43,407 bases of DNA from Candidatus Peregrinibacteria bacterium (GCA_018662075.1 JABJGX010000011.1:1-43407); one strand, 5' to 3'; shown: positions 5,860-17,041, numbered from the stretch's first letter. The notes: generated from the sequence alone by a model not told the origin. Translations and numbers: made by a program.

Positions 5860-6777
5860 GCTAACGCGTTCTAGTGTTGGAAGTACCGTCATCCATACTT
5901 GCCCCTCGGCAAATGGAATGTCTTGCCCTGCTGCATCTGTAATGCGGAATGGCTCTTTAAAACTTGAACGACTCCAGCGCGCATCCCACATCTTTCCACT
6001 GTGAAACACCTGCGCCTTACCACCACCATTCAGCGTCATGAATAACCTACCGTAAGCGCCAATCTCATCTATTGGAACTTCCATAATAACCACCGTACTA
6101 GGCCTTGCTGCGCTAATTGTCTCACCATTTGTTCTCTCGTATTTCTGTGACAGAGGCTGGAAATCAAAAGATACATTGTGCAGTACATTGAAAAAATTCA
6201 CGCGTATAGACTCTGCAGTCTCCCCTGCCTCAGGCATTCCTTTTTTAAAAGGAGGCCACAACACCGGACGCAAAAGACTTTCTGGAACCTCTGCAAGGAA
6301 AGATTTAATCAAGTCCTTATTCAGAAACAAATCATGAGGAGCAGCTGGTCCAACTTTACGCAGGGAGCCATGCTCATCATCGAAGTAGAGTAAGTTACGT
6401 GCAAAGAAATTTTTCCCATTGGTCACTCTTTCTAGAGCTTCAGGACTTCCCCCAGCATGGAATACCGTTCGAGACCACGGAGCAATACTATCAAGGAAAT
6501 ACGGACGTAAAGAACGCACTGGTCCAATCTCTCTTGGAATAGCTCGTGCATCAAATGTTGCTACAAAGCGGGAGATAAACCCTTCAACCAAGAACTCCTG
6601 CACCATCACTGCATCCTCTATTCCTGCATGATAAGGCCTCGCATCCTCATGATTTTCAATAACAACCGAGAAGAATGTTTGCTCGGTATTAAAATACCCA
6701 TTCACATATGCAAAAAGAACCGCTGCGCTTAATACTGTAAGTACGATAATAACAAATGGCAGAAACCGAGAAATCAT
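5851..6777 (-). CDS. DUF3048 (YerB-like) family protein with an N-terminal membrane anchor
   Basis: N-terminal TM segment FLPFVIIVLTVLSAAVLFAYV, and the motif VVIENHEDARPYHAGIEDAVMVQEFLVEGFISRFVATF, which is typical of DUF3048. Confidence 0.7.
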   Translation of the reverse strand: MISRFLPFVIIVLTVLSAAVLFAYVNGYFNTEQTFFSVVIENHEDARPYHAGIEDAVMVQEFLVEGFISRFVATFDARAIPREIGPVRSLRPYFLDSIAPWSRTVFHAGGSPEALERVTNGKNFFARNLLYFDDEHGSLRKVGPAAPHDLFLNKDLIKSFLAEVPESLLRPVLWPPFKKGMPEAGETAESIRVNFFNVLHNVSFDFQPLSQKYERTNGETISAARPSTVVIMEVPIDEIGAYGRLFMTLNGGGKAQVFHSGKMWDARWSRSSFKEPFRITDAAGQDIPFAEGQVWMTVLPTLERVSWE

Positions 6778-6788
6778 AGGAAGTGTGT

Positions 6789-7451
6789 TTATTCAGATTT
6801 TGCTTCTTCACCTTCTTTTTTGTCGCCTTCTTCACCTTCTTTCTTTTCTCCTTCTTCATCTTCAGTAGCAGCTGCTTCTTCCTGAACTTCTTCTACAGCA
6901 GCACGTGGCTCCTGAACAGTGGCGATCATCGTGTCGGGCTCGTCCATAATCTGTACACCATCCATAGGGAGAATGTCTGATGCATGAAGTGCATCTCCGA
7001 ACTCCTTAAGACTTGAAAGACTAATATGAAGTGCGTGTGGAAGGTTTGCTGGCAAGCAATGCACAGTAACGTGATCGTTTGTCGTGATAAGTACTCCGTT
7101 AAGAGTCTTTACCGCTTCAGACTCGTCGATGAATTCGAGTGGGATCTGTGCTTCGATCTCCTTCTTCATGTTCACAGCGTAGAAATCAACATGAATAATT
7201 CTGTCACTAACAGGATCAAATGAGAGATCATGGAAGAGAGAAGGAACCTTCTTACCGTCAATATCAAGGTCTACAATTGTACTTCCTCCAGCCTGAACGT
7301 ATGCCTTATAGATCTCGCTATAATCACACTGAATAGACGTATTCTCTGCCTCGTTGCCATAAACAACACCAGGAACGATGCTCTCCCTGCGAAGAACTTT
7401 TGCAGGTGTGTCTGCCAAGCGGGCCTTTGCTTTGAGTGAAATCATTTCCAT
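6789..7451 (-). CDS. rplY: 50S ribosomal protein L25 / general stress protein Ctc, with an acidic E/K/G-rich C-terminal tail
   Basis: LRRESIVPGVVYGNEAENTSIQ...HDLSFDPVSDRIIHVDFYAV matches the L25/Ctc N- and C-domains. Confidence 0.85.
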   Translation of the reverse strand: MEMISLKAKARLADTPAKVLRRESIVPGVVYGNEAENTSIQCDYSEIYKAYVQAGGSTIVDLDIDGKKVPSLFHDLSFDPVSDRIIHVDFYAVNMKKEIEAQIPLEFIDESEAVKTLNGVLITTNDHVTVHCLPANLPHALHISLSSLKEFGDALHASDILPMDGVQIMDEPDTMIATVQEPRAAVEEVQEEAAATEDEEGEKKEGEEGDKKEGEEAKSE

Positions 7452-7509
7452 AAGAAAGCCGTCAAAGGCTACGGGAGAGGCATTGCAGCGTCAACAAAAA
7501 AACGGACAA

Positions 7510-8310
7510 CTACGAATGTTTCCCTTTCCACTTCCAAAAGTACTTAAATGCGCTAGAAACGTGAATTCTTCCAGTTTTTTTAAATAATAGGTCCCAAAAA
7601 CTCTCTCCACTAAGTCGATTTTTTCTATCTGAAGCACTTACAGAAGGGAGGTATATCACTTTTTTCCCAACTTCATGACACCGACGACAAAGATCTGTAT
7701 CTTCAAAGAAGAGGAAAAACCGCTCATCAAACCCGCCAAGCTTCTGAAAAAGATCCCGTCGCATCATGAAGCAACCACCAATAGCCCAGTCTACCTCCTG
7801 CTCTTCATCCAAATTCGTATCCTTCATCAAATACCCATCTAAATACGATGGGAACATGTTCCCAAAAAAGCTTCGTCGAGACACGATATCGGATATGTGT
7901 GGGTAGCGACGAATAGAAAGGCGCTGTGTACCATCATTATGAATAAGACGTGGGGCAACAATGCCAGCATCATCATTCTTCTGAAGGTACGCAACCATCT
8001 TCTCTATCCCCTGTGGCTCTAAGACCTTATCAGGGTTATTCACCACTACAAACTCCCCTACGGCATACGTTATGCCTGCGTTATACCCAGACCCAAACCC
8101 TTCATTGGAAGGAGTCTCTATAAACCGAACATTATGAAACTTCCGTAACTGCGTACGCAAAATTCCAATAGAGTCATCATCTGAATGATTATCAATAACT
8201 AAAATCTCTATTTGAGAGACCAGAGTTTGCTCCTGCAATGCCTTCACACAACGCACTGTGGCATTTGCGTTACGGAAGTTTAGAATAAGAACAGAAACGA
8301 GAGGTTGCAT
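7510..8310 (-). CDS. family 2 glycosyltransferase
   Basis: N-terminal VSVLILNFRN...EILVIDNHSDDDS and a later DxD-like FFEDTDL; typical GT-A/GT2 layout. Confidence 0.85.
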   Translation of the reverse strand: MQPLVSVLILNFRNANATVRCVKALQEQTLVSQIEILVIDNHSDDDSIGILRTQLRKFHNVRFIETPSNEGFGSGYNAGITYAVGEFVVVNNPDKVLEPQGIEKMVAYLQKNDDAGIVAPRLIHNDGTQRLSIRRYPHISDIVSRRSFFGNMFPSYLDGYLMKDTNLDEEQEVDWAIGGCFMMRRDLFQKLGGFDERFFLFFEDTDLCRRCHEVGKKVIYLPSVSASDRKNRLSGESFWDLLFKKTGRIHVSSAFKYFWKWKGKHS

Positions 8311-8349
8311 ACTAGCTCAGAGTAACGCTCTGTGAGAAGATAGCAACCA

Positions 8350-10602
8350 ATGAGTCAGGAATTAGATGAATTGCGCAAGCGGGTACTATCAGCTCCTATG
8401 GAGCCTGGGGTTTATCGATGGCTCAATGCAAAAGGAGACATTATCTACGTTGGTAAAGCAAAAAATCTAAAAAACAGAATGCTATCATATGTACAATCGG
8501 GCTTGTCCGCCGAAGCCTCGGCGAAGGCGGGACCCTGGAAACTATCACTCATAAAAAACATTGCAGACTTCGATGTCACCATCACAACATCAGAGCTCGA
8601 GGCACTGATCCTCGAGACGAATCTGATTAAAGAAATCCAACCAAAATATAATGTGTTGATGAAAGATGGCAAGAGCTACGTCTATGTTCGCATCTCGACC
8701 AAAGACCAGTACCCAAGTATTTCGATTGTCCGAAAAATGGAAGACGATAAAGCTGCTTACTTTGGTCCGTACTTAACAGCATACAATATCAAGAGAACAC
8801 TCGACATGCTGCACGATGTTTTTCGGTACCGTGCATGCGAGGGGTCTGTTCTTGCGCTGAACAAAGAAAAGAAAGTAGGTCGTGCATGTCTGGAATACCA
8901 AATCGGAAAATGTAACGGACTCTGCGTCGGTGATGTAACCAAAAAACAATACCGCGAAGGCATAGAAGAAGTCATGCGATTCCTAAAAGGAGACTACGCA
9001 ACAACGGTACTGTCTCTAAAAGATATGATGGAAGTAGCAGCAACCGAAAAGAAGTTTGAGCGCGCAGGAAAGCTTCGTGACACCCTGAAATACATTGCCA
9101 CTCTTAATGAACAACAAACCGTATCAGACACATCCCGAGAAGACACAGATGCAATTGGAATGGCAGTACAAAACGGTAAAGTGCAAGTAGTAGTCTTACA
9201 CGAACGCAATGGAAGAGTCGTAGACGAGCGAAGCTTCGCTGTCTCTGGAGAATCGGACTCGGTAAGTGATGCCCTCTCGCAGCTGATCCCCCAGCTCTAT
9301 AGTTCTGCACCAGAAATCCCAGACTTAGTCGTGATTCCAGAGGAGCCAGAAGACATCGCCGTGCTGGAAGAGTGGCTCACACAAATGCGCGGGAAAAAGG
9401 TAGAGCTCAGAGCTGCCGAGCGCGGTAAGAAATCGAAACTCTTGGCCCTTGCACAAAGTAATGCCACGCAAAAGATATCCCAGCAGTTTGCAAAGTGGGA
9501 AGCTGCTTCAAAAAACATTGCAGACGCATTAGAAGACCTTAAAGACACACTAAAACTTCCAGGTATTCCGAGTCGCATCGAAGGCTACGACATTTCACAC
9601 CTCGGTGGAACAGAAACTGTCGGGTCTATGGTCGTCATCAAGAACGGAAAACCTGCAAACCCTGAATATCGGTCATTCACAATAAGAACAATGCAGAGCG
9701 GTGAAATAGATGATTACAAAGCACTAAAAGAAGTACTTAGGCGTAGGCTGCACTATCTAGTAGAAGAAAATACAGAGATCGTAATAACAAAACTGAAAAA
9801 GAAAGAGCGAGAAGAGTGGTCCGCAGATAAAAAGAAGAGGCTAGAGGTCCCTAAAGATTGGAAAGAAGAAGTACTCGTTGTACGCGAAAACGAAACAGAG
9901 CTTCTGACACTTGACCTTAGAAAATCTGCAAAAGACAAAATAATCTACGGGACAATAGATATACAGACAAAAGATGATGCACTATTACACAGCGCACTCG
10001 ATACGCTAGAAAAAGAAATTGGAAAGCGCGAGTGGTATCTCTGCTGTCAGACTGATGTTGATACCGATATGTTTGCACTACACGGGCTCATGGATTCAGT
10101 GAAAAAAATGCCTGACCATTTCAAGTCTAACTGCGCACATATGTTCCATCGTCGGAAGACAATTAGTGATGCATCGTTAAATTCTACACCAGACCTTTTG
10201 GTTATAGATGGCGGAAAAGGACAGCTGAGCAGTGTAAAAGAAGTACTCGACGAACTGAAAATGACGATCCCTGTTATCGGCCTCGCAAAACGAGAGGAGG
10301 AAGTATTTTTACCAGGACAGTCTTTACCGGAAGACCTTCCAAAGAATTCCCAAGCTAGTTTTTTGCTGCAAAGACTCCGGAACGAAGCACACAGGTTTGC
10401 AAACTCTCACAGAGAAAAACGTATCGCAAAAGGACTGATAGGTTCTGCACTCGACTCGGTCCCAGGTATTGGTGACATTACGAAAAAAGAATTGCTTCAA
10501 AAGTTCGGCTCTGTAGCAGGGATTATCGCAGCTCCAGATGCAGAGATACTAAAAATAGTGAATACTCAAAAGCTCGAAGATCTACGAAAGCACCTTACGT
10601 AG
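8350..10602 (+). CDS. uvrC: excinuclease ABC subunit C, with a ~144-aa lineage-specific insert
   Basis: GIY-YIG N-domain (GVYRWLNAKGDIIYVGKAKNLKNR), Cys-rich region, UVR motif (FERAGKLRDTL), endonuclease domain (IEGYDISHLGG, LLVIDGGKGQL, GLAKREEE) and C-terminal HhH. It is 750 aa, versus the ~600 aa I recall for typical UvrC. Confidence 0.9.
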   Translation: MSQELDELRKRVLSAPMEPGVYRWLNAKGDIIYVGKAKNLKNRMLSYVQSGLSAEASAKAGPWKLSLIKNIADFDVTITTSELEALILETNLIKEIQPKYNVLMKDGKSYVYVRISTKDQYPSISIVRKMEDDKAAYFGPYLTAYNIKRTLDMLHDVFRYRACEGSVLALNKEKKVGRACLEYQIGKCNGLCVGDVTKKQYREGIEEVMRFLKGDYATTVLSLKDMMEVAATEKKFERAGKLRDTLKYIATLNEQQTVSDTSREDTDAIGMAVQNGKVQVVVLHERNGRVVDERSFAVSGESDSVSDALSQLIPQLYSSAPEIPDLVVIPEEPEDIAVLEEWLTQMRGKKVELRAAERGKKSKLLALAQSNATQKISQQFAKWEAASKNIADALEDLKDTLKLPGIPSRIEGYDISHLGGTETVGSMVVIKNGKPANPEYRSFTIRTMQSGEIDDYKALKEVLRRRLHYLVEENTEIVITKLKKKEREEWSADKKKRLEVPKDWKEEVLVVRENETELLTLDLRKSAKDKIIYGTIDIQTKDDALLHSALDTLEKEIGKREWYLCCQTDVDTDMFALHGLMDSVKKMPDHFKSNCAHMFHRRKTISDASLNSTPDLLVIDGGKGQLSSVKEVLDELKMTIPVIGLAKREEEVFLPGQSLPEDLPKNSQASFLLQRLRNEAHRFANSHREKRIAKGLIGSALDSVPGIGDITKKELLQKFGSVAGIIAAPDAEILKIVNTQKLEDLRKHLT

Positions 10603-11262: not shown

Positions 11263-11337
11263 GGCCCGTTCATCTAATGGTTAGGATACCAGGTTCTCAT
11301 CCTGGAAATAGGGGTTCGATTCCCCTACGGGCTACCA
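11263..11337 (+). tRNA. tRNA-Glu (anticodon CUC), genomically encoded CCA
   Basis: Hand-folded cloverleaf:
- Acceptor stem GGCCCGT/ACGGGCT, with G1-U72.
- D arm ATCT-AATGGTTA-GGAT.
- Anticodon arm CCAGG-TTCTCAT-CCTGG, anticodon at 11296..11298.
- Variable region AAAT.
- T arm AGGGG-TTCGATT-CCCCT.
- Discriminator A followed by CCA.
The total is 75 nt. Confidence 0.85.
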
Positions 11338-11338
11338 A
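11323..11338 (+). repeat. direct repeat copy 1 (attL-like): 3' end of tRNA-Glu, CCCTACGGGCTACCAA
   Basis: Exact 16-nt match to 16322..16337. Confidence 0.8.
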
Positions 11339-11372: not shown

Positions 11373-11423
11373 AACTTCTATACTACTGTAGAAGTTGTTA
11401 AAAGTGCTGTTTTATGGTAAAAT
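11373..11423 (+). promoter_or_regulatory. candidate promoter (TTGTTA-17 nt-TGgTAAAAT) with an 8-bp inverted repeat overlapping the -35
   Basis: The inverted repeat is AACTTCTA (11373..11380) / TAGAAGTT (11389..11396). The -35 lies at 11395..11400. The extended -10, TGGTAAAAT, lies at 11415..11423 and ends 9 nt before the ATG at 11433. Confidence 0.4.
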
Positions 11424-11432
11424 AGTAAGATT

Positions 11433-11774
11433 ATGCAAAAACAAAAACTCATTGAGGAGCTAACACTTCTAACAGGGCGATCTGCGATACTTACACCACA
11501 TCATAAAAAGGCAATTCTTAAAGCTTTGCCGACAATGAAACAAGAAAAGATACTAGAGCTTCAAGAAATTCTTGGAGAAGAAAGATCTGTGATTGCAGTA
11601 TTTGCAGAACAGACTATTTCACAAGCAATACAGCACGGTGATACAAAAATATTCAAAAAAATGGATTCATTGCTTGTAAAAACGAATAAGAAATTACTAA
11701 AGACGGATGAAGTTACAAGCACATCCATAGAACAAGGACAGCTAGAACACTTCTTTGATGACATAACTACATGA
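11433..11774 (+). CDS. hypothetical protein (113 aa), translationally coupled to the giant gene
   Basis: ORF track. The stop TGA overlaps the next ATG (ATGA) and is followed in frame by TAA. No recognisable family. Confidence 0.5.
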   Translation: MQKQKLIEELTLLTGRSAILTPHHKKAILKALPTMKQEKILELQEILGEERSVIAVFAEQTISQAIQHGDTKIFKKMDSLLVKTNKKLLKTDEVTSTSIEQGQLEHFFDDITT

Positions 11775-14700
11775 TAAATCAAAGTCCAGATCGGCAATCC
11801 TATAACAAGCGCATCCAAGAAACGCAAAATGATATCGATAAAACGGATTCAAAACTCGATAGCAGAATTGATATAGATGGTATGGACCCAGAAGAGCAAG
11901 AAGCTCTGAAAGAGGCGTACATAGATAAGGTAAATTTGATGCAGGGAAAAGTACATCGATCATTTGAGAATATTGATATCCAACGAAACCTTCGCTCTCC
12001 TCAGTGGAGAAAATGGGAGAAAGAAATCATCACAGTTGAAGCGAACCTTTTAATGATTCTTAGAAAAGAGAGTTCTAGACTAAATCGTTCAAATAAAGAA
12101 GCTAATGCAACATCAGGCCTCGATGATTTTAATAAAAAAATAGATTCATTTCTTCATGAAATTGATGCAATTGATGAAGTGCATAACACGCCTGCTCCAG
12201 CGGAAAAACTTAATGAAAAAGAGCCAGAGAAGCTCCGCTCTGCAGATGCCATATTCCATGAATGGAATGTCCCAGGGACAGACGAGGAGATCACAGAGAA
12301 GGCGCAGAAAGCAAACGAACGATACGGAGAAGAAACCTTACGCAATCTCGATGCAACTCTCTCATTGTATGATGCTCTAGATCCAGAATTAAGAAAGAAG
12401 CTCTTTAAACAAAGTACTACTGTAAGGCTTCCACAAGTAGCTGGGCAATTAGCAAATGGAACATTTGAGTCCTCCCCTCTTGGGTTCCTTCTTACAGAAG
12501 ATATTGAAACCATTGAAGGTCAACTATTGATAGAACGAGAAGAAATAATAGATGTCATCGGAAGAAAGACCTCAGAAGTACAATCTCTTAAAGAGGCAAC
12601 CACCGAGACTATTACAAGACTATGTAAAGTGGCTGGTATAGACGTAGGAAAAGAGAACGTTCTCAGCGATATCTATTCATGGATGGCCAATACCAATGGT
12701 AAACCTGAACTACAAAAAAAGATTGTGGGAGAAATTAGAGATATGGCTAAAAAAGTTACAGAACTGCAAAAAGAGTCACAGGATTTGTATCCTCAAGTGA
12801 CTACGATAGAACGTGCATTTAATGTATTTGACACAAATAACGCTCGTAATGTGGGCAATGCAAAAGAGGAAGCACAGTTACGCTACCGAGGAGCGCTGGA
12901 ATATGGCATCCCATTCCCAGGTGATGCTGAATTACAAAAACTACTTCGACCAACACAAATGAATCTATTAAAAGGAGAGCCCGAAAAGGCTTTGCACGTA
13001 TCTATAGATGAGCTCAATACATTCATGGAACAAAATCCAAACCTAGATACTCTTCATCGTGTTGATGTTCTATCTTTACATAGTGTACGAAAACGCAAAG
13101 TTACTAAAGCTACATTCCAGACGTTCACAGTGGCTAGTAATCCTCTTGATGCCTTTAGGCGTTCCAAAAATGCAGCGTTCGATATAGGAGGAAGCCTAGA
13201 TACCAAACAAAAAACATATACGGTACTAACAGAACTGGGGACAATAGCGAATGGGGATGAGATTATTGCTATAAAGCTTCCACCTTACAATGGAAGACCA
13301 AGCGAAAAGGTAATCGCCATACGTAATACAAATGGCATTGTTCAGCTGCAGGATGGAACTGTTATTGAAAAGCCAGATAAATTGCAGCCTATGATTATTA
13401 ACTCTATGAATGGCGATGGAGAAACAACCTACGTCTCTAAGGAGACATCAAAATACTTACAAGAAAATGTAAATATTGGGAGTAAAAACAGGGTGATACT
13501 CAGAAATCGTGATGCCATAAATTCTAAAGAGTCTTTTACTGGAGGAACATCGATAAGGATGCTCGATACATCGCAGCTGCAACTTGCATCACGTGATGGA
13601 AAAGGGATGCTAATTATCAAAGGTGCAGATGGCAAACAAGAAGAGTCAATCAACGAAGAGTTCCTACTAAAAGGAAGTGCAGAGCATGGAGGCGATGTCC
13701 TACAAAGCATCGATAAAAACCCAATTGTTCAAGGTATCACAAAGCGAGCAGGTGGACTCCAAGAGAACATGCAGAATATGCAAACAATGTTAGAAACTGC
13801 AATGGACAGCAAGGCAACAACCCAAGGAGCTTTTGTAGATCAGATGCGAAGTTATGCTAGACCGATGCTGGCAACCATGGAAGACCCTGCAACTCGTCAA
13901 AATATCGTACAAGCAAAAAACCTTCTCCAGTCAGAGCTCAGTCGTGTGAAGCTAGGAAGCTATGTTGGAAGTGGAATAGAAAGTGAGATACAAGATCGTA
14001 TCGATGCACTAGACGGCTACATTACGGTGCTCAATGATAACCAGCTAAAGAATGCACTGCAAAATGCAATGGAGCTAAAACCCGAAGAATGGGCTGAATG
14101 GTTGAGCACTGATGGCCTCATCATGCTTGGTGCTATTGCCCTAGCGATAGTGGCCATTGTTGCATTAACAGTGCTTACAGGAGGAGCAGGACTTATTGCT
14201 ATCTCTGCAGTAGGTGCAGCAGGTGGACTAATTGGCGGAGAGCTAACAAAAGAAGGGCTGCACCATGCTTATAATACTTGGGGTGGAGCTGCTTCGGGTG
14301 AATATCGATATAATGATAGATCACGATTCGGTGCGTACCTTGAAGGACAAAAACTATACGACCCAAAGACAAAAGAGTTTGTAGATATGAGCTTTCTAGA
14401 AAACGTAGCTGCGCCATATGCACGAGACTTTGCAGTTAGCTTTGCAACAACAGCCCTTGCGCTTGGTGCAGGGCAGGCTGTCGGGAATAGTCTGAGTAAA
14501 CTAGCGCAGAATTCTAAATGGATACAGGCTCTCTCAAAGAATAACAAAGTTGCAAATAGCATTATGAAAAAGTTATCTGGCCTTGCAGATGATGCAGCAA
14601 CAATTCCAAAGAACATGAAGGAATTTGCTGGAAAATCCCTAAAAGAAATTGCTGATGAGCTCGGGGATGAACTCGTACTAGAAAAGAGTGCAGAAGGTGT

Positions 14701-16282
14701 TCTTAATCGTATTGACAGTCGATTAGGTTCGCTTGCGACATTCTTCGTCGCTGCTGGAAAAGGGTTTAAGCCAATGGCTGGAGGAAAGCTTAGCTACGGA
14801 GCAGAAAAGAAAAGTGCTGATGTGCGAGTAGACATAGAAAGCCAAGGTCACACTATTGTTTCTGAGATAAATGGTGTCTTTGACGTGAAAACATACGATG
14901 GAAAAACCCTTATTATAGAACCAGAAACAGTAACGGAAGCCACCAGTAATACTGAAGCCTTAGACCTTGCTACGCAACATGACCTTGCAGCACTAAAAGA
15001 ATATGTAAAAGCGCATGATATAGATGACTCCACTCGTATCACTCTTGCAGAAACTGTACTCGACCGCACACTGAGCCCAGCAGATCGCAAAGCTTTGATC
15101 ACTGCGCACAACAAACCTGGAACTATCGATGAACTCACACCAAGTGAACTTAAAGTAAAAGCTACAGAACTCCGGGATAACGCAACATTTACAAAGACAG
15201 AACGAAGAATGCTCATAGAAGCAGGTCTAGCAGGACGGCCACCAGTAATAGGTACGAGAAAAGGTCCGCCGCCGCCTCCTCCAATGAGAAATAAGAAGAG
15301 GCCACCGCCAGCAATAGGTGTTATGAAAAGCTCTCCTGAAAGTAAAAAAGATCCTCTTCTGCCATCTATACAATTAAGTGACATCAATGTACTTACTGGA
15401 GATCAGCGAAAAGCATACATTAAATCTAAGATGAACAATCCATTATGGATAAGGTCATTAGGTGCCGCGCAACGAAGAATGACTGTGTTCCCATCAAAAG
15501 AAAATACTCACCACATACTTTGGGTAAAAGATAATAGCGGTCCAACAAATACTGTTGGAGCTAAAACTCTTTCGTATAAATATCTAATGAGCCCTGAAGG
15601 ATCATTAGAGCATTCAATATTTTTAGAAGGTGAGAAGATGATGATGAAAGCATTTGCAGATGCTCAATCAATGTTTCCAAAAAATGTAAAAGTAGCTACT
15701 GGTTTTACAGTAGAAAGCATGAGTGCAGATACCGGAATGAGCCATGGTAATCTATTGGGCTACAAAGTGAATACTGATAACACCAATAGGCTATTTACAT
15801 TAATAGCAGAGGCAAGAAAGACCGGAGATTACTCAAAAGTAGAAAGTCATATTGATTGGATAAAATCTGCCTTTGCACATGAAACAACTCATGCCGCACG
15901 TAATGACCTTGATAATCTTCCAGGACTTAATGCAAACGAAGTTCCATCACATGCAGTCCAATTCTTAACAATATGGGATAAGCCTGACAGGTTCTTCTCC
16001 CAAAGAATAAGCTCACTAAAGAATAAGCCGCTAAGTAGTTTCGGTAGAATCCATGGAGAACTTGGAGGCCTTAAGGTGGTACAAGAGAAACTTATTGCCT
16101 GTAGCGACTGTTCCTATAAGCCAAAAGATCTGACACCTGTGGAGCTAAAGAAGGCTATTGAATCTATTCCAGAGGCAAAGCGTGGTTCTGTAATCGATAC
16201 AATGGTCGCGGAGTTAGTAACAACACCAGTAGCTGATTTTCAGGCTAATGTTCGCACTGTATTTGATGAATCTCAAAAGTAG
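11771..16282 (+). CDS. giant (1503 aa) effector-like protein with four parts: a hydrophilic helical N-region, a central hydrophobic hairpin, a polyproline tract, and a C-terminal HExxH domain
   Basis: Uninterrupted 4.5-kb ORF with no signal peptide. Hydrophobic hairpin LIMLGAIALAIVAIVALTVLTGGAGLIAISAVGAAGGLIGG (14114..14239). GPPPPPPMRNKKRPPPA (15263..15310). AFAHETTHAARN (HETTH at 15878..15892). Confidence 0.8.
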   Translation: MINQSPDRQSYNKRIQETQNDIDKTDSKLDSRIDIDGMDPEEQEALKEAYIDKVNLMQGKVHRSFENIDIQRNLRSPQWRKWEKEIITVEANLLMILRKESSRLNRSNKEANATSGLDDFNKKIDSFLHEIDAIDEVHNTPAPAEKLNEKEPEKLRSADAIFHEWNVPGTDEEITEKAQKANERYGEETLRNLDATLSLYDALDPELRKKLFKQSTTVRLPQVAGQLANGTFESSPLGFLLTEDIETIEGQLLIEREEIIDVIGRKTSEVQSLKEATTETITRLCKVAGIDVGKENVLSDIYSWMANTNGKPELQKKIVGEIRDMAKKVTELQKESQDLYPQVTTIERAFNVFDTNNARNVGNAKEEAQLRYRGALEYGIPFPGDAELQKLLRPTQMNLLKGEPEKALHVSIDELNTFMEQNPNLDTLHRVDVLSLHSVRKRKVTKATFQTFTVASNPLDAFRRSKNAAFDIGGSLDTKQKTYTVLTELGTIANGDEIIAIKLPPYNGRPSEKVIAIRNTNGIVQLQDGTVIEKPDKLQPMIINSMNGDGETTYVSKETSKYLQENVNIGSKNRVILRNRDAINSKESFTGGTSIRMLDTSQLQLASRDGKGMLIIKGADGKQEESINEEFLLKGSAEHGGDVLQSIDKNPIVQGITKRAGGLQENMQNMQTMLETAMDSKATTQGAFVDQMRSYARPMLATMEDPATRQNIVQAKNLLQSELSRVKLGSYVGSGIESEIQDRIDALDGYITVLNDNQLKNALQNAMELKPEEWAEWLSTDGLIMLGAIALAIVAIVALTVLTGGAGLIAISAVGAAGGLIGGELTKEGLHHAYNTWGGAASGEYRYNDRSRFGAYLEGQKLYDPKTKEFVDMSFLENVAAPYARDFAVSFATTALALGAGQAVGNSLSKLAQNSKWIQALSKNNKVANSIMKKLSGLADDAATIPKNMKEFAGKSLKEIADELGDELVLEKSAEGVLNRIDSRLGSLATFFVAAGKGFKPMAGGKLSYGAEKKSADVRVDIESQGHTIVSEINGVFDVKTYDGKTLIIEPETVTEATSNTEALDLATQHDLAALKEYVKAHDIDDSTRITLAETVLDRTLSPADRKALITAHNKPGTIDELTPSELKVKATELRDNATFTKTERRMLIEAGLAGRPPVIGTRKGPPPPPPMRNKKRPPPAIGVMKSSPESKKDPLLPSIQLSDINVLTGDQRKAYIKSKMNNPLWIRSLGAAQRRMTVFPSKENTHHILWVKDNSGPTNTVGAKTLSYKYLMSPEGSLEHSIFLEGEKMMMKAFADAQSMFPKNVKVATGFTVESMSADTGMSHGNLLGYKVNTDNTNRLFTLIAEARKTGDYSKVESHIDWIKSAFAHETTHAARNDLDNLPGLNANEVPSHAVQFLTIWDKPDRFFSQRISSLKNKPLSSFGRIHGELGGLKVVQEKLIACSDCSYKPKDLTPVELKKAIESIPEAKRGSVIDTMVAELVTTPVADFQANVRTVFDESQK

Positions 16283-16321
16283 TAAAATATTTTGCACCCA
16301 CAGCCCCATCCACCAGTCTTT

Positions 16322-16337
16322 CCCTACGGGCTACCAA
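16322..16337 (+). repeat. direct repeat copy 2 (attR-like): orphan copy of the tRNA-Glu 3' end
   Basis: Exact 16-nt match, CCCTACGGGCTACCAA, to 11323..11338. There is no tRNA body upstream of it. Confidence 0.8.
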
Positions 16338-16338
16338 T

Positions 16339-16363
16339 TTCCTCTTGCAGGAGGGATTTTTTT
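16339..16363 (+). terminator. intrinsic terminator directly after the orphan tRNA 3' fragment
   Basis: The stem TTCCTCT/GGAGGGA has 7 bp including 2 G-U pairs. The loop is TGCA and a run of 7 T follows. Confidence 0.65.
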
Positions 16364-16372
16364 CGATATGAT
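16345..16372 (+). promoter_or_regulatory. candidate promoter for the SET gene (TTGCAG-16 nt-TATGAT)
   Basis: The -10 lies at 16367..16372 and ends 9 nt before the ATG at 16382. Confidence 0.3.
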
Positions 16373-16381
16373 CTTGCGGTT

Positions 16382-16774
16382 ATGAAACTCTGGTTTGGAA
16401 AATATAGGCCACGACATGAACTCATCGTAAAGAAAGGACTCGCAGGTCTTGGGCTTTTTGCCACAGATGATATCCTGAAAGATGACTTTATCATTGAATA
16501 CACAGGCCCACTACTCACAGAAGAGCAATCAGAAGAAAAAGCAGGCTTATATTTATTTGCAGTCACCGATACCAAGTGGACCATCGATGGCAGTGGCCGC
16601 GAAAACATTGCCAGATATATAAACCATAGCTGCAAACCAAATTGCACCCCGTATGCAGATGGCAAACGTATCGTTATTCATGCGAAACGAAATATTAAAG
16701 CAGGTGAGGAGCTGACCTATAACTATGGCAAAGAATATATGGATGACCTCAACTGCAGGTGTCCGCACTGCTAG
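16382..16774 (+). CDS. SET-domain protein (putative protein lysine methyltransferase)
   Basis: GLGLFATDDILKDDFIIEYTGPLL, ARYINHSCKPNC, EELTYNYG and a C-terminal post-SET-like CRCPHC. I moved the start from the TTG at 16292 to the ATG at 16382, because the extension would read through the att repeat and the terminator. Confidence 0.85.
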   Translation: MKLWFGKYRPRHELIVKKGLAGLGLFATDDILKDDFIIEYTGPLLTEEQSEEKAGLYLFAVTDTKWTIDGSGRENIARYINHSCKPNCTPYADGKRIVIHAKRNIKAGEELTYNYGKEYMDDLNCRCPHC

Positions 16775-16789
16775 TGGTATACTTCGCGT

Positions 16790-17041
16790 ATGCCTCACTA
16801 CTTCTATCTTGCCCGCTGTAAAGACGATTCGCTGTACAGTGGAACATGTATCAACCTAGAGCAGCGCGAAGCCACGCATAACGCAGGAAAAGGTGCCAAG
16901 TACACACGGGCAAAAGGCCCCGTGAAGTTTGTGTACCACGAAACATTTGAAACCCTCAGCGAAGCCCGCAAACGTGAAGCCGAAGTAAAAAAAATGTCTA
17001 AGACAGAAAAGGAGAAGCTAGCATCAGAAATATCCCCTTAA
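16790..17041 (+). CDS. GIY-YIG nuclease superfamily protein (UPF0213/YhbQ-like, 83 aa)
   Basis: YFYLARCKDDSLYSGTCINLEQREATHNAGKGAKYTR...ARKREAEVKKMSK is the typical stand-alone GIY-YIG pattern. Confidence 0.8.
   Translation: MPHYFYLARCKDDSLYSGTCINLEQREATHNAGKGAKYTRAKGPVKFVYHETFETLSEARKREAEVKKMSKTEKEKLASEISP

Follow-up and report, generated by a model that had tools for sequence, protein, structure and literature searches.

The closest known kind of system to the locus described here is the polymorphic toxin system, a class that takes in the CdiA, Rhs, LXG and colicin-type toxins and that has reportedly been delineated through the comparative genomics of Zhang, Aravind and colleagues. In such systems, a conserved N-terminal delivery part is followed by C-termini that are swapped at a defined junction, a small downstream gene changes with the cargo, and the occurrence of the genes is patchy and island borne. 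We analyzed a 43,407-nucleotide (nt) stretch of DNA, here called the window, from a Candidatus Peregrinibacteria bacterium (GCA_018662075.1 JABJGX010000011.1:1-43407), which is contig C39 of genome G000 (879 kb, 86% complete). It encodes a modular protein of 1503 amino acids (aa), P0001, whose family shares these properties with polymorphic toxins, including, in some relatives, a cargo recognized as a toxin domain (Zeta_toxin). We consider it moderately probable that P0001 is a modular polymorphic delivered effector or toxin encoded, with a partner gene, on a 5-kb islet at a tRNA-Glu gene. A delivered effector is the best reading because of the polymorphic carrier-cargo architecture of the family and the cargo-matched downstream genes of the relatives.

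The likeness to the known systems is incomplete. Polymorphic toxins possess a known trafficking domain, whereas the P0001 carrier matched nothing in Pfam, NCBIfam or PDB. P0001, unlike them, has a hydrophobic hairpin of its own and a dedicated upstream partner, and its cargo lacks an immunity candidate. The junctions described for polymorphic toxins are PT-VENN, PT-TG and PT-HINT, whereas the junction in the P0001 family is a new helical module of ~85 aa. A small helical upstream protein is also known from the prePAAR type VI toxins with their Eag proteins and from the LXG type VII toxins with their Lap proteins, where it serves the hydrophobic or targeting N-terminal part of the toxin. These share with P0001 a small upstream gene and a large protein with a C-terminal cargo, with the immunity gene downstream in the known systems. 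In contrast to them, neither PAAR, type VI components nor WXG100/type VII components were found here, and the hairpin of P0001 lies in the middle of the carrier rather than at its N-terminus. Finally, the MARTX-type toxins resemble, as an architectural analogy only, two long relatives of P0001 (P0041 and P0042, see below) in placing several cargo blocks behind one membrane-interacting carrier with a repeated element between them. The differences are that Pfam revealed neither RTX-type repeats nor a cysteine protease domain in P0041 and P0042, that the repeated element is a folded module of ~85 aa, and that the lineage is unrelated.

The P0001 gene is an open reading frame (ORF) whose ATG start codon shares the sequence ATGA with the TGA stop codon of the upstream 113-aa ORF, and the identical protein was present on 24 contigs of the ENA, NCBI and Logan assemblies, including the NCBI metagenome-assembled genome (MAG) GCA_018672015.1. 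An earlier interpretation made without database searches, the sequence-only reading, had described the ORF, a bilobed hydrophobic hairpin, a Gly/Ala-rich segment, a polyproline tract and an HExxH motif, and translation together with a hydropathy scan confirmed all of these and their coordinates (Table 1). By the Kyte-Doolittle scale, residues 775 to 826, which include the hairpin at residues 782 to 823, form the sole hydrophobic stretch of the protein. The N-terminus is strongly hydrophilic, and P0001 is therefore without a signal peptide, as that reading had also stated. Gly and Ala together account for 22% of residues 831 to 1050 versus 12% of residues 1 to 780, and HExxH occurs once, at residues 1370 to 1374. 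The first ~780 residues had been called heptad rich; long helices were indeed predicted there, but AlphaFold also placed a beta-rich domain at residues ~435 to 630. The statement that no homolog could be recognized did not hold, since carrier, partner and cargo each have homologs.

Table 1. Features of the tRNA-Glu islet and of P0001, in window coordinates
Feature	Coordinates	Strand	Basis
tRNA-Glu(CTC), integration target	11263..11337	+	ARAGORN; three genomes of the same genus have this tRNA at the corresponding syntenic position
Left 19-nt direct repeat TTCCCCTACGGGCTACCAA (tRNA-Glu 3' end), attL-like	11320..11338	+	Repeat search
Promoter-like site (TTGTTA-17-TAAAAT, with TG) immediately 5' of the partner gene	11395..11423	+	Consensus scan; pattern match only
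113-aa partner gene, candidate chaperone/adaptor	11433..11774	+	Homologs overlap carrier-gene starts
P0001, 1503-aa modular putative effector gene	11771..16282	+	Open ORF, translation
Carrier (N-core), residues 1-1050: helical regions, beta-rich domain ~435-630, hairpin, amphipathic Gly/Ala-rich region	11771..14920	+	Homology
Gly/Ala-rich bilobed hydrophobic hairpin, residues 782-823	14114..14239	+	Only hydrophobic stretch; conservation
Helical joint module of ~85 aa, residues 1072-1157, C-terminal end ...LIEAGLAG	14984..15241	+	Hidden Markov model built here
Polyproline linker GPPPPPPMRNKKRPPPA, residues 1165-1181	15263..15313	+	Translation
Gluzincin-like cargo, residues ~1208-1503	15392..16279	+	HMMER family, AlphaFold
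HETTH (H1370, E1371, H1374), putative catalytic/metal-binding motif	15878..15892	+	Invariant; within cargo-model helix 174-200
E1390, candidate third metal ligand, in NEVPSHA	15938..15940	+	Invariant; first residue of model helix 209-219
Right direct repeat, attR-like	16319..16337	+	18/19 match, spacing 4999 nt
Terminator-like hairpin and T-run directly after the right repeat	16339..16364	+	Consensus scan

Comparison with its relatives showed that P0001 consists, in order, of a carrier, a joint module, a polyproline linker and an exchangeable C-terminal cargo. A word-seeded search returned eight homologs of 1323 to 2038 aa, and in piecewise BLAST residues 1 to 1050 of P0001 were common to all eight, residues ~1072 to 1157 to some and the last 340 residues to none. 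A profile search added two closer homologs, P0042 (3016 aa) and P0041 (3326 aa), with 61 to 62% identity over residues 1 to 1160. Searches of Pfam, NCBIfam and PDB sequences with the whole of P0001 gave zero or chance-level matches.

The carrier was found in P0002 to P0009, P0041, P0042 and additional genome loci at 24 to 62% identity and was best conserved at residues ~600 to 1030, around the hairpin. Eight columns are invariant in an alignment of 15 family members, and four of them fall at the hairpin, with I789, A792 and G819 inside it and W777 just before it. The AlphaFold model of the carrier (mean predicted local distance difference test [pLDDT] score, 64) is mostly helical apart from the beta-rich domain, with the hairpin and the post-hairpin region poorly defined. 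No match to the carrier was obtained in Pfam, NCBIfam, PHROGs or PDB sequence and profile searches, and Foldseek of the model returned nothing meaningful, the top match being TcdA1 with a template modeling (TM) score of 0.06. The carrier searches found no similar protein outside this bacterial class (GTDB Gracilibacteria, which includes Peregrinibacteria), within which the carrier occurred in 17 of 401 genomes and 13 of 229 genera; among 61 relatives searched, 11 had the family. Two matches from another family of the class (G381 and G410) contain 5 to 9 in-frame TGA codons, consistent with the recoded Gracilibacteria/Absconditabacteria. TGA does serve as a stop codon in genome G000, although rarely (41 of the 624 ORFs with 150 or more residues), and from these sequences the window genome was taken to use the standard code.

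The exchange of C-termini was most evident from P0007 and a protein of genome G007, which are 88% identical over residues 1 to 972 and unrelated afterwards. By Pfam, a Zeta_toxin (PF06414)/AAA_33 cargo was identified in P0002, P0043 and the L024 protein, with Zeta_toxin scoring above the cutoff, and a Peptidase_M48 plus ABC1 kinase cargo was identified in L021. An HD-like block of ~840 aa was found in P0005 and in the proteins of L019, L020 (P0003), L022, L023 and L026; P0006 has an abbreviated version of it, and other relatives end in unassigned domains. The genes downstream varied with these cargoes. In two loci the Zeta cargo gene is overlapped by a downstream HD_4 gene (L035, 6101-6928; L024, 5299-6147), and the two HD_4 proteins are 46% identical versus only ~26% for their carriers. 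The HD-like cargo was followed in 5/5 loci by an overlapping gene for a protein of ~206 aa. These cargo-matched downstream genes in relatives conform to the toxin-immunity pattern of polymorphic systems, as judged from gene order and similarity. HD_4 is a RelA/SpoT-type hydrolase, and its position beside a Zeta-type cargo suggests that it may be an enzymatic antidote reversing the kinase product rather than a binding inhibitor. The sequence-only reading had already proposed an effector or toxin; the proposal stands, but what supports it is the polymorphic architecture and the cargo-matched downstream genes and not the motifs that were cited for it.

The joint module lies between carrier and cargo. 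A hidden Markov model built from it detected 16 instances in 11 proteins, with the consensus ...RIxLAExLLGRxLTxxExxALIxAHxKPGxIDELSPxELxxKxxEL...ERRxLIExGLAG, and Pfam gave no match to the module in the module-bearing proteins scanned. P0041 and P0042 each have three copies, placed between successive unannotated cargo blocks, and these proteins look like multi-payload versions of the P0001 platform. A further copy, 54 to 60% identical, was present in a 1783-aa open frame of genome G001 that is 5' truncated at the contig end. The module also occurs on the unrelated carriers P0010, P0014 and P0019 and as the final element of P0004. We read it as a probable recombination junction, and it may possibly also be the site at which cargo is released.

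Between the module and the window cargo is the polyproline tract. Pro-rich tracts likewise join the module or another carrier to the zincin cargo in P0010, P0013, P0014, P0015, P0016 and P0017. Since several unrelated carriers have such a tract ahead of the same cargo, a role as linker or spacer would fit at least as well as that of a profilin, EVH1 or SH3 ligand.

The gene immediately upstream of P0001 appears to belong to the carrier. In seven loci (that of P0001 and L019, L020, L022, L023, L024 and L035), the carrier gene is overlapped at its start by the gene of a partner homolog of 112 to 120 aa, to which it is translationally coupled, and one partner homolog comes from G034, which belongs to the same GTDB family as the window genome. 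A profile search of 5.8 billion proteins placed the partner family in ten clusters, all of similar size and none annotated. The partner had no Pfam match and no similarity to DUF1795, DUF3130 or DUF3958. It had been put forward as either a chaperone or an immunity protein. The immunity role was ruled out, as the partner covaries with the carrier and not with the cargo; since it tracks the carrier, it is a candidate chaperone or adaptor. At L038 (2571-3269), P0014, which has a different carrier and the same zincin cargo, is preceded by genes for proteins of 113 and 92 aa, the second of which overlaps the P0014 start; neither resembles the window partner.

The two genes lie on an islet integrated at the 3' end of the tRNA-Glu gene, as judged from the repeats and from comparison with a sister species, in agreement with the tRNA-linked islet of the sequence-only reading. 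The repeats enclose nothing but the promoter-like site, the partner and P0001 genes and a further 37 nt. The terminator-like hairpin beyond the right repeat may be the displaced terminator of the tRNA gene. The GC content of the 5.0-kb islet is 0.406 versus 0.442 ± 0.014 for the genome, within the lowest 1.4% of 5-kb windows. In the sister species, G002, the flanking proteins are 77 to 93% identical, the cassette is absent, and synteny resumes at position 16355; the shared order is UvrC, a bPH-like protein, tRNA-Glu, SET, GIY-YIG, RlmH and RumA. In place of the cassette, between tRNA-Glu and SET, G002 has an unrelated ORF of 295 aa whose N-terminal segment is hydrophobic and signal-like (L028; G002:C48, 3890-4777, minus strand), and the tRNA 3' end is not repeated beside this ORF. 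The tRNA-Glu/SET site thus resembles a hotspot of variable content. Five homologous cassettes in other genomes also adjoin the 3' ends of tRNA genes (tRNA-Ser or tRNA-Arg), where chance adjacency was estimated at ~1% per locus (33 tRNAs in 879 kb). At these tRNA-adjacent cassettes, no repeats of at least 14 nt with at most one mismatch were found except for one 16-nt match in L025, which was read as the T-arm of a second tRNA gene (tRNA-Pro). No integrase is present among the two genes of the islet, nor are capsid, tail or conjugation genes.

To the right of the islet, positions 16382 to 17041 contain a gene for a compact SET-domain methyltransferase (130 aa, ATG at 16382) and a GIY-YIG gene, whose products are 78 to 84% identical in G002. 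Both genes were considered as immunity or partner genes and ruled out, being kept in G002 without the cassette; because they are conserved in a sister species that lacks the cassette, they are taken as core genome. On the other side, UvrC (8350-10602, 750 aa) exhibited a weak C-terminal match to the 5'-3' exonuclease C-terminal SAM fold (E value of 0.0023, below the cutoff for acceptance).

The C-terminal cargo of P0001 had been flagged as a possible zincin protease from its HExxH motif. An exhaustive HMMER search of 1.84 billion cluster representatives with residues 1182 to 1503 gave a family of 28. In a 21-member alignment (A1; 19 to 46% identity to the query), H1370, E1371, H1374 and E1390 were the only invariant columns, R1377 was nearly invariant, and HExxH was also kept in 28/28 aligned domain copies. 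The AlphaFold model of the cargo (pLDDT, 86.8; predicted TM score, 0.86) contains, in order, a five-stranded sheet with a backing helix, the HExxH helix at positions 174 to 200 and a helix at positions 209 to 219 that starts with E1390. This arrangement is that of the gluzincins (thermolysin and M1 types), in which HExxH lies on one helix, an invariant Glu starts the next helix, as E1390 does 16 residues on, and a beta-sheet with a backing helix precedes the active-site helix. Thermolysin-type enzymes have an NExxSD motif around this Glu, and the (N/Q)E(V/I)(P/A)SH of the cargo family resembles it. The sequence-only reading had held that the lack of a third metal ligand would speak against its interpretation; that objection does not apply, since E1390, invariant and at the start of the next helix, is a candidate for the third ligand.

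Unlike with established gluzincins, no match of the cargo passed a curated or significance threshold, and the family has its own conserved C-terminal helical part with CxYKPK...SIPE. Foldseek against PDB gave nothing significant (best E value of ~0.5). The most probable of the weak matches were M1-type gluzincins (ERAP1, EryP and LTA4H), with ACE and ACE2 also present; the best gluzincin match, ERAP1, was weak (E value of 0.6, probability of 0.57, TM score of 0.37). DUF5700, a putative zinc peptidase family, was matched weakly by 5 of the 21 members, with a best E value of 2.8E−4 that is under the curated Pfam cutoff. A PDB profile search with the cargo alignment gave no match, and Foldseek of the cargo against BFVD gave weak matches only, to uncharacterized giant-virus and phage proteins. 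From the model and the invariant residues, we concluded that the cargo is a putative peptidase of a previously undescribed, small gluzincin-like family.

The zincin domain was found at the C-terminus, behind Pro-rich tracts, in the large proteins P0010, P0013, P0014, P0016 and P0017, which also bear Gly/Ala-rich hydrophobic segments, and as a stand-alone protein of 330 to 370 aa in low-GC Melainabacteria MAGs. One Melainabacteria MAG has two zincin paralogs 16 kb apart. Two additional candidates were rejected: a second HExxH cargo, in P0007, is in register with the zincin family but reached an hhalign E value of only 0.007 with a probability of 5%, and the HEERH of P0009 did not align to the family. 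The domain appears to have been recruited as cargo in the Peregrinibacteria clade.

Several observations weigh against delivery. P0001 has neither a signal peptide nor a trafficking domain recognized by Pfam, NCBIfam, PHROGs or PDB searches, and the hairpin lies in a low-confidence region of the AlphaFold model. WXG100 (PF06013) was absent from 61/61 genomes searched, and FHIPEP (SctV/FlhA) was not found in the window genome or 20 relatives; positive controls were detected. A VirB4/TraG-like P-loop ATPase of 762 aa (TraG P-loop, AAA_10 and TraC_F_IV) is encoded at L036 (G000:C89, 3652-5937, minus strand), but it is solitary among housekeeping genes with no other type IV components adjacent. 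This gene adjoins an unannotated 277-aa gene and is near a gene for an SLH-domain protein. As the route of the family the ATPase was rejected, its association with the carrier being weak (5/9 carrier-positive genomes versus 12/52 others) and the gene being solitary. Three possibilities are left: P0001 may leave the cell by a route not recognized here, it may be freed by cell lysis in the manner of colicins, or it may stay inside. The cargoes also raise objections. Distant stand-alone zincin homologs of Melainabacteria lie in conserved housekeeping synteny without signal peptides (Exo_endo_phos, then an epimerase/DUF1731 gene in L031 and L033 only, then the zincin; L031, L033 and L034, ~6000-8800 in each), and for this reason the zincin domain is not in itself a toxin. 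The ABC1, M48 and HD families are ordinary cellular enzymes as well. The window cargo has no downstream partner, with the P0001 stop codon 37 nt from the right repeat of the islet, and the other zincin-cargo loci show none consistently. A zincin cargo could do without an immunity gene if its substrate is absent from the producer.

The main rival is accordingly a protein that is not exported: a resident scaffold anchored by the hairpin in the membrane of the producer, with both large parts in the cytoplasm and with housekeeping or regulatory enzymes as C-termini. The lack of a signal peptide agrees with this, a single hairpin would put both ends of the protein on one side of the membrane, no secretion system could be tied to P0001, the Melainabacteria homologs lie in core synteny, and cargo families such as ABC1 kinase, M48 peptidase and HD hydrolase are commonplace in cells. 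A resident scaffold does not, however, sit well with a cassette that is a low-GC tRNA islet absent from the sister species, with a family present in only about 4% of the genomes of the class, or with near-identical carriers that bear unrelated C-termini. The Zeta cargo with HD_4 in two divergent loci and the HD-like cargo with its own small gene in 5/5 loci follow a cargo/downstream pattern typical of conflict systems and not of housekeeping; we therefore regard a resident scaffold as unlikely, though it deserves to be taken seriously. The sequence-only reading had also suggested that P0001 could be the surface tether of an epibiotic cell; such a tether or adhesin, which the hairpin would anchor with the large domains displayed outside to hold on to the host, is the one we find least credible of the explanations weighed here. 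The beta-rich domain of the carrier at ~435 to 630 could bind a receptor, and giant membrane proteins are frequent in related epibionts (PMC8080830). With no signal peptide and a hydrophilic N-terminus of 780 residues, however, neither end has an obvious means of display, the Pfam scan revealed no adhesin-type domains, and enzymatic cargoes with matched downstream genes are unlike adhesins.

The hairpin had also been compared with the chlamydial Inc proteins, which would make P0001 a translocated effector for a eukaryotic host with a polyproline tract recruiting profilin or SH3/EVH1 proteins. The bilobed hydrophobic hairpin of ~40 residues and the missing signal peptide are indeed Inc-like, polyproline tracts stand beside the cargo in several relatives, and a SET-domain gene adjoins. 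The comparison was not upheld: no type III export gate (SctV/FlhA) was found in the 21 related genomes, the hairpin lies 780 residues into a carrier that is class restricted here, the SET gene is conserved flank outside the cassette, and the polyproline tract is a module-to-cargo linker that also occurs on unrelated carriers. Because neither a type III gate nor WXG100 was found, we do not regard P0001 as an Inc protein. Zeta toxins act on a peptidoglycan precursor, and the Zeta-toxin-type cargo in relatives thus points to bacterial targets. Moreover, the sole characterized member of the wider Absconditabacteria-Gracilibacteria-Peregrinibacteria clade is a predator of bacteria (PMC8080830). An Inc-like effector is on these grounds improbable. 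To a similar degree, we doubt that P0001 is the relic of a mobile element for which it once served in transfer or entry. Tape-measure, ejection and conjugative channel proteins combine long helices, a hydrophobic segment and a C-terminal wall-opening metallopeptidase, and the helices, hydrophobic segment and HExxH of P0001 would be reminiscent of Pb2 of phage T5. The islet also lies at a tRNA gene with att-like repeats. Yet the islet consists of two genes without an integrase or capsid, tail or conjugation genes, and kinase or HD cargoes with matched downstream genes are ill suited to wall opening. PHROGs gave only noise, with no meaningful match for either protein, and the idea of a phage protein was dropped for that reason.

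If P0001 is a delivered effector, as we favor, the 113-aa partner would bind and escort the carrier, whether to maintain the hairpin in soluble form or to pass P0001 on to an export route. At the host or target cell, the hairpin with its flanking amphipathic helices would then enter the membrane, recombination and possibly cargo release would have their point at the joint module, and the zinc peptidase would cut a target-cell substrate absent from the producer. A more specific version, which we put forward tentatively and hold to be doubtful, is a toxin platform without a dedicated secretion system, in which the partner-solubilized carrier crosses the host cell membrane by means of its own glycine-rich hairpin and then frees one cargo or several where the joint module ends in GLAG.

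None of the four parts (carrier, partner, junction module and cargo family) is described in the libraries searched. To our knowledge, bacteria of the Candidate Phyla Radiation (CPR) are thought to live on other cells, and the proteins that they use on their hosts are almost unknown. The locus and its relatives define testable pieces in this respect, namely, a class-restricted carrier, a small partner, a junction module and a catalog of cargoes with matched downstream genes. They also add a small, structurally distinct zincin family that is common to Melainabacteria and the Peregrinibacteria clade, and they suggest that tRNA-linked, integrase-less islets move such cassettes within genomes of ~1 Mb. 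Should the self-translocating platform prove true, this branch of the CPR would have its first described effector-delivery system, with a new metalloprotease family as one payload.

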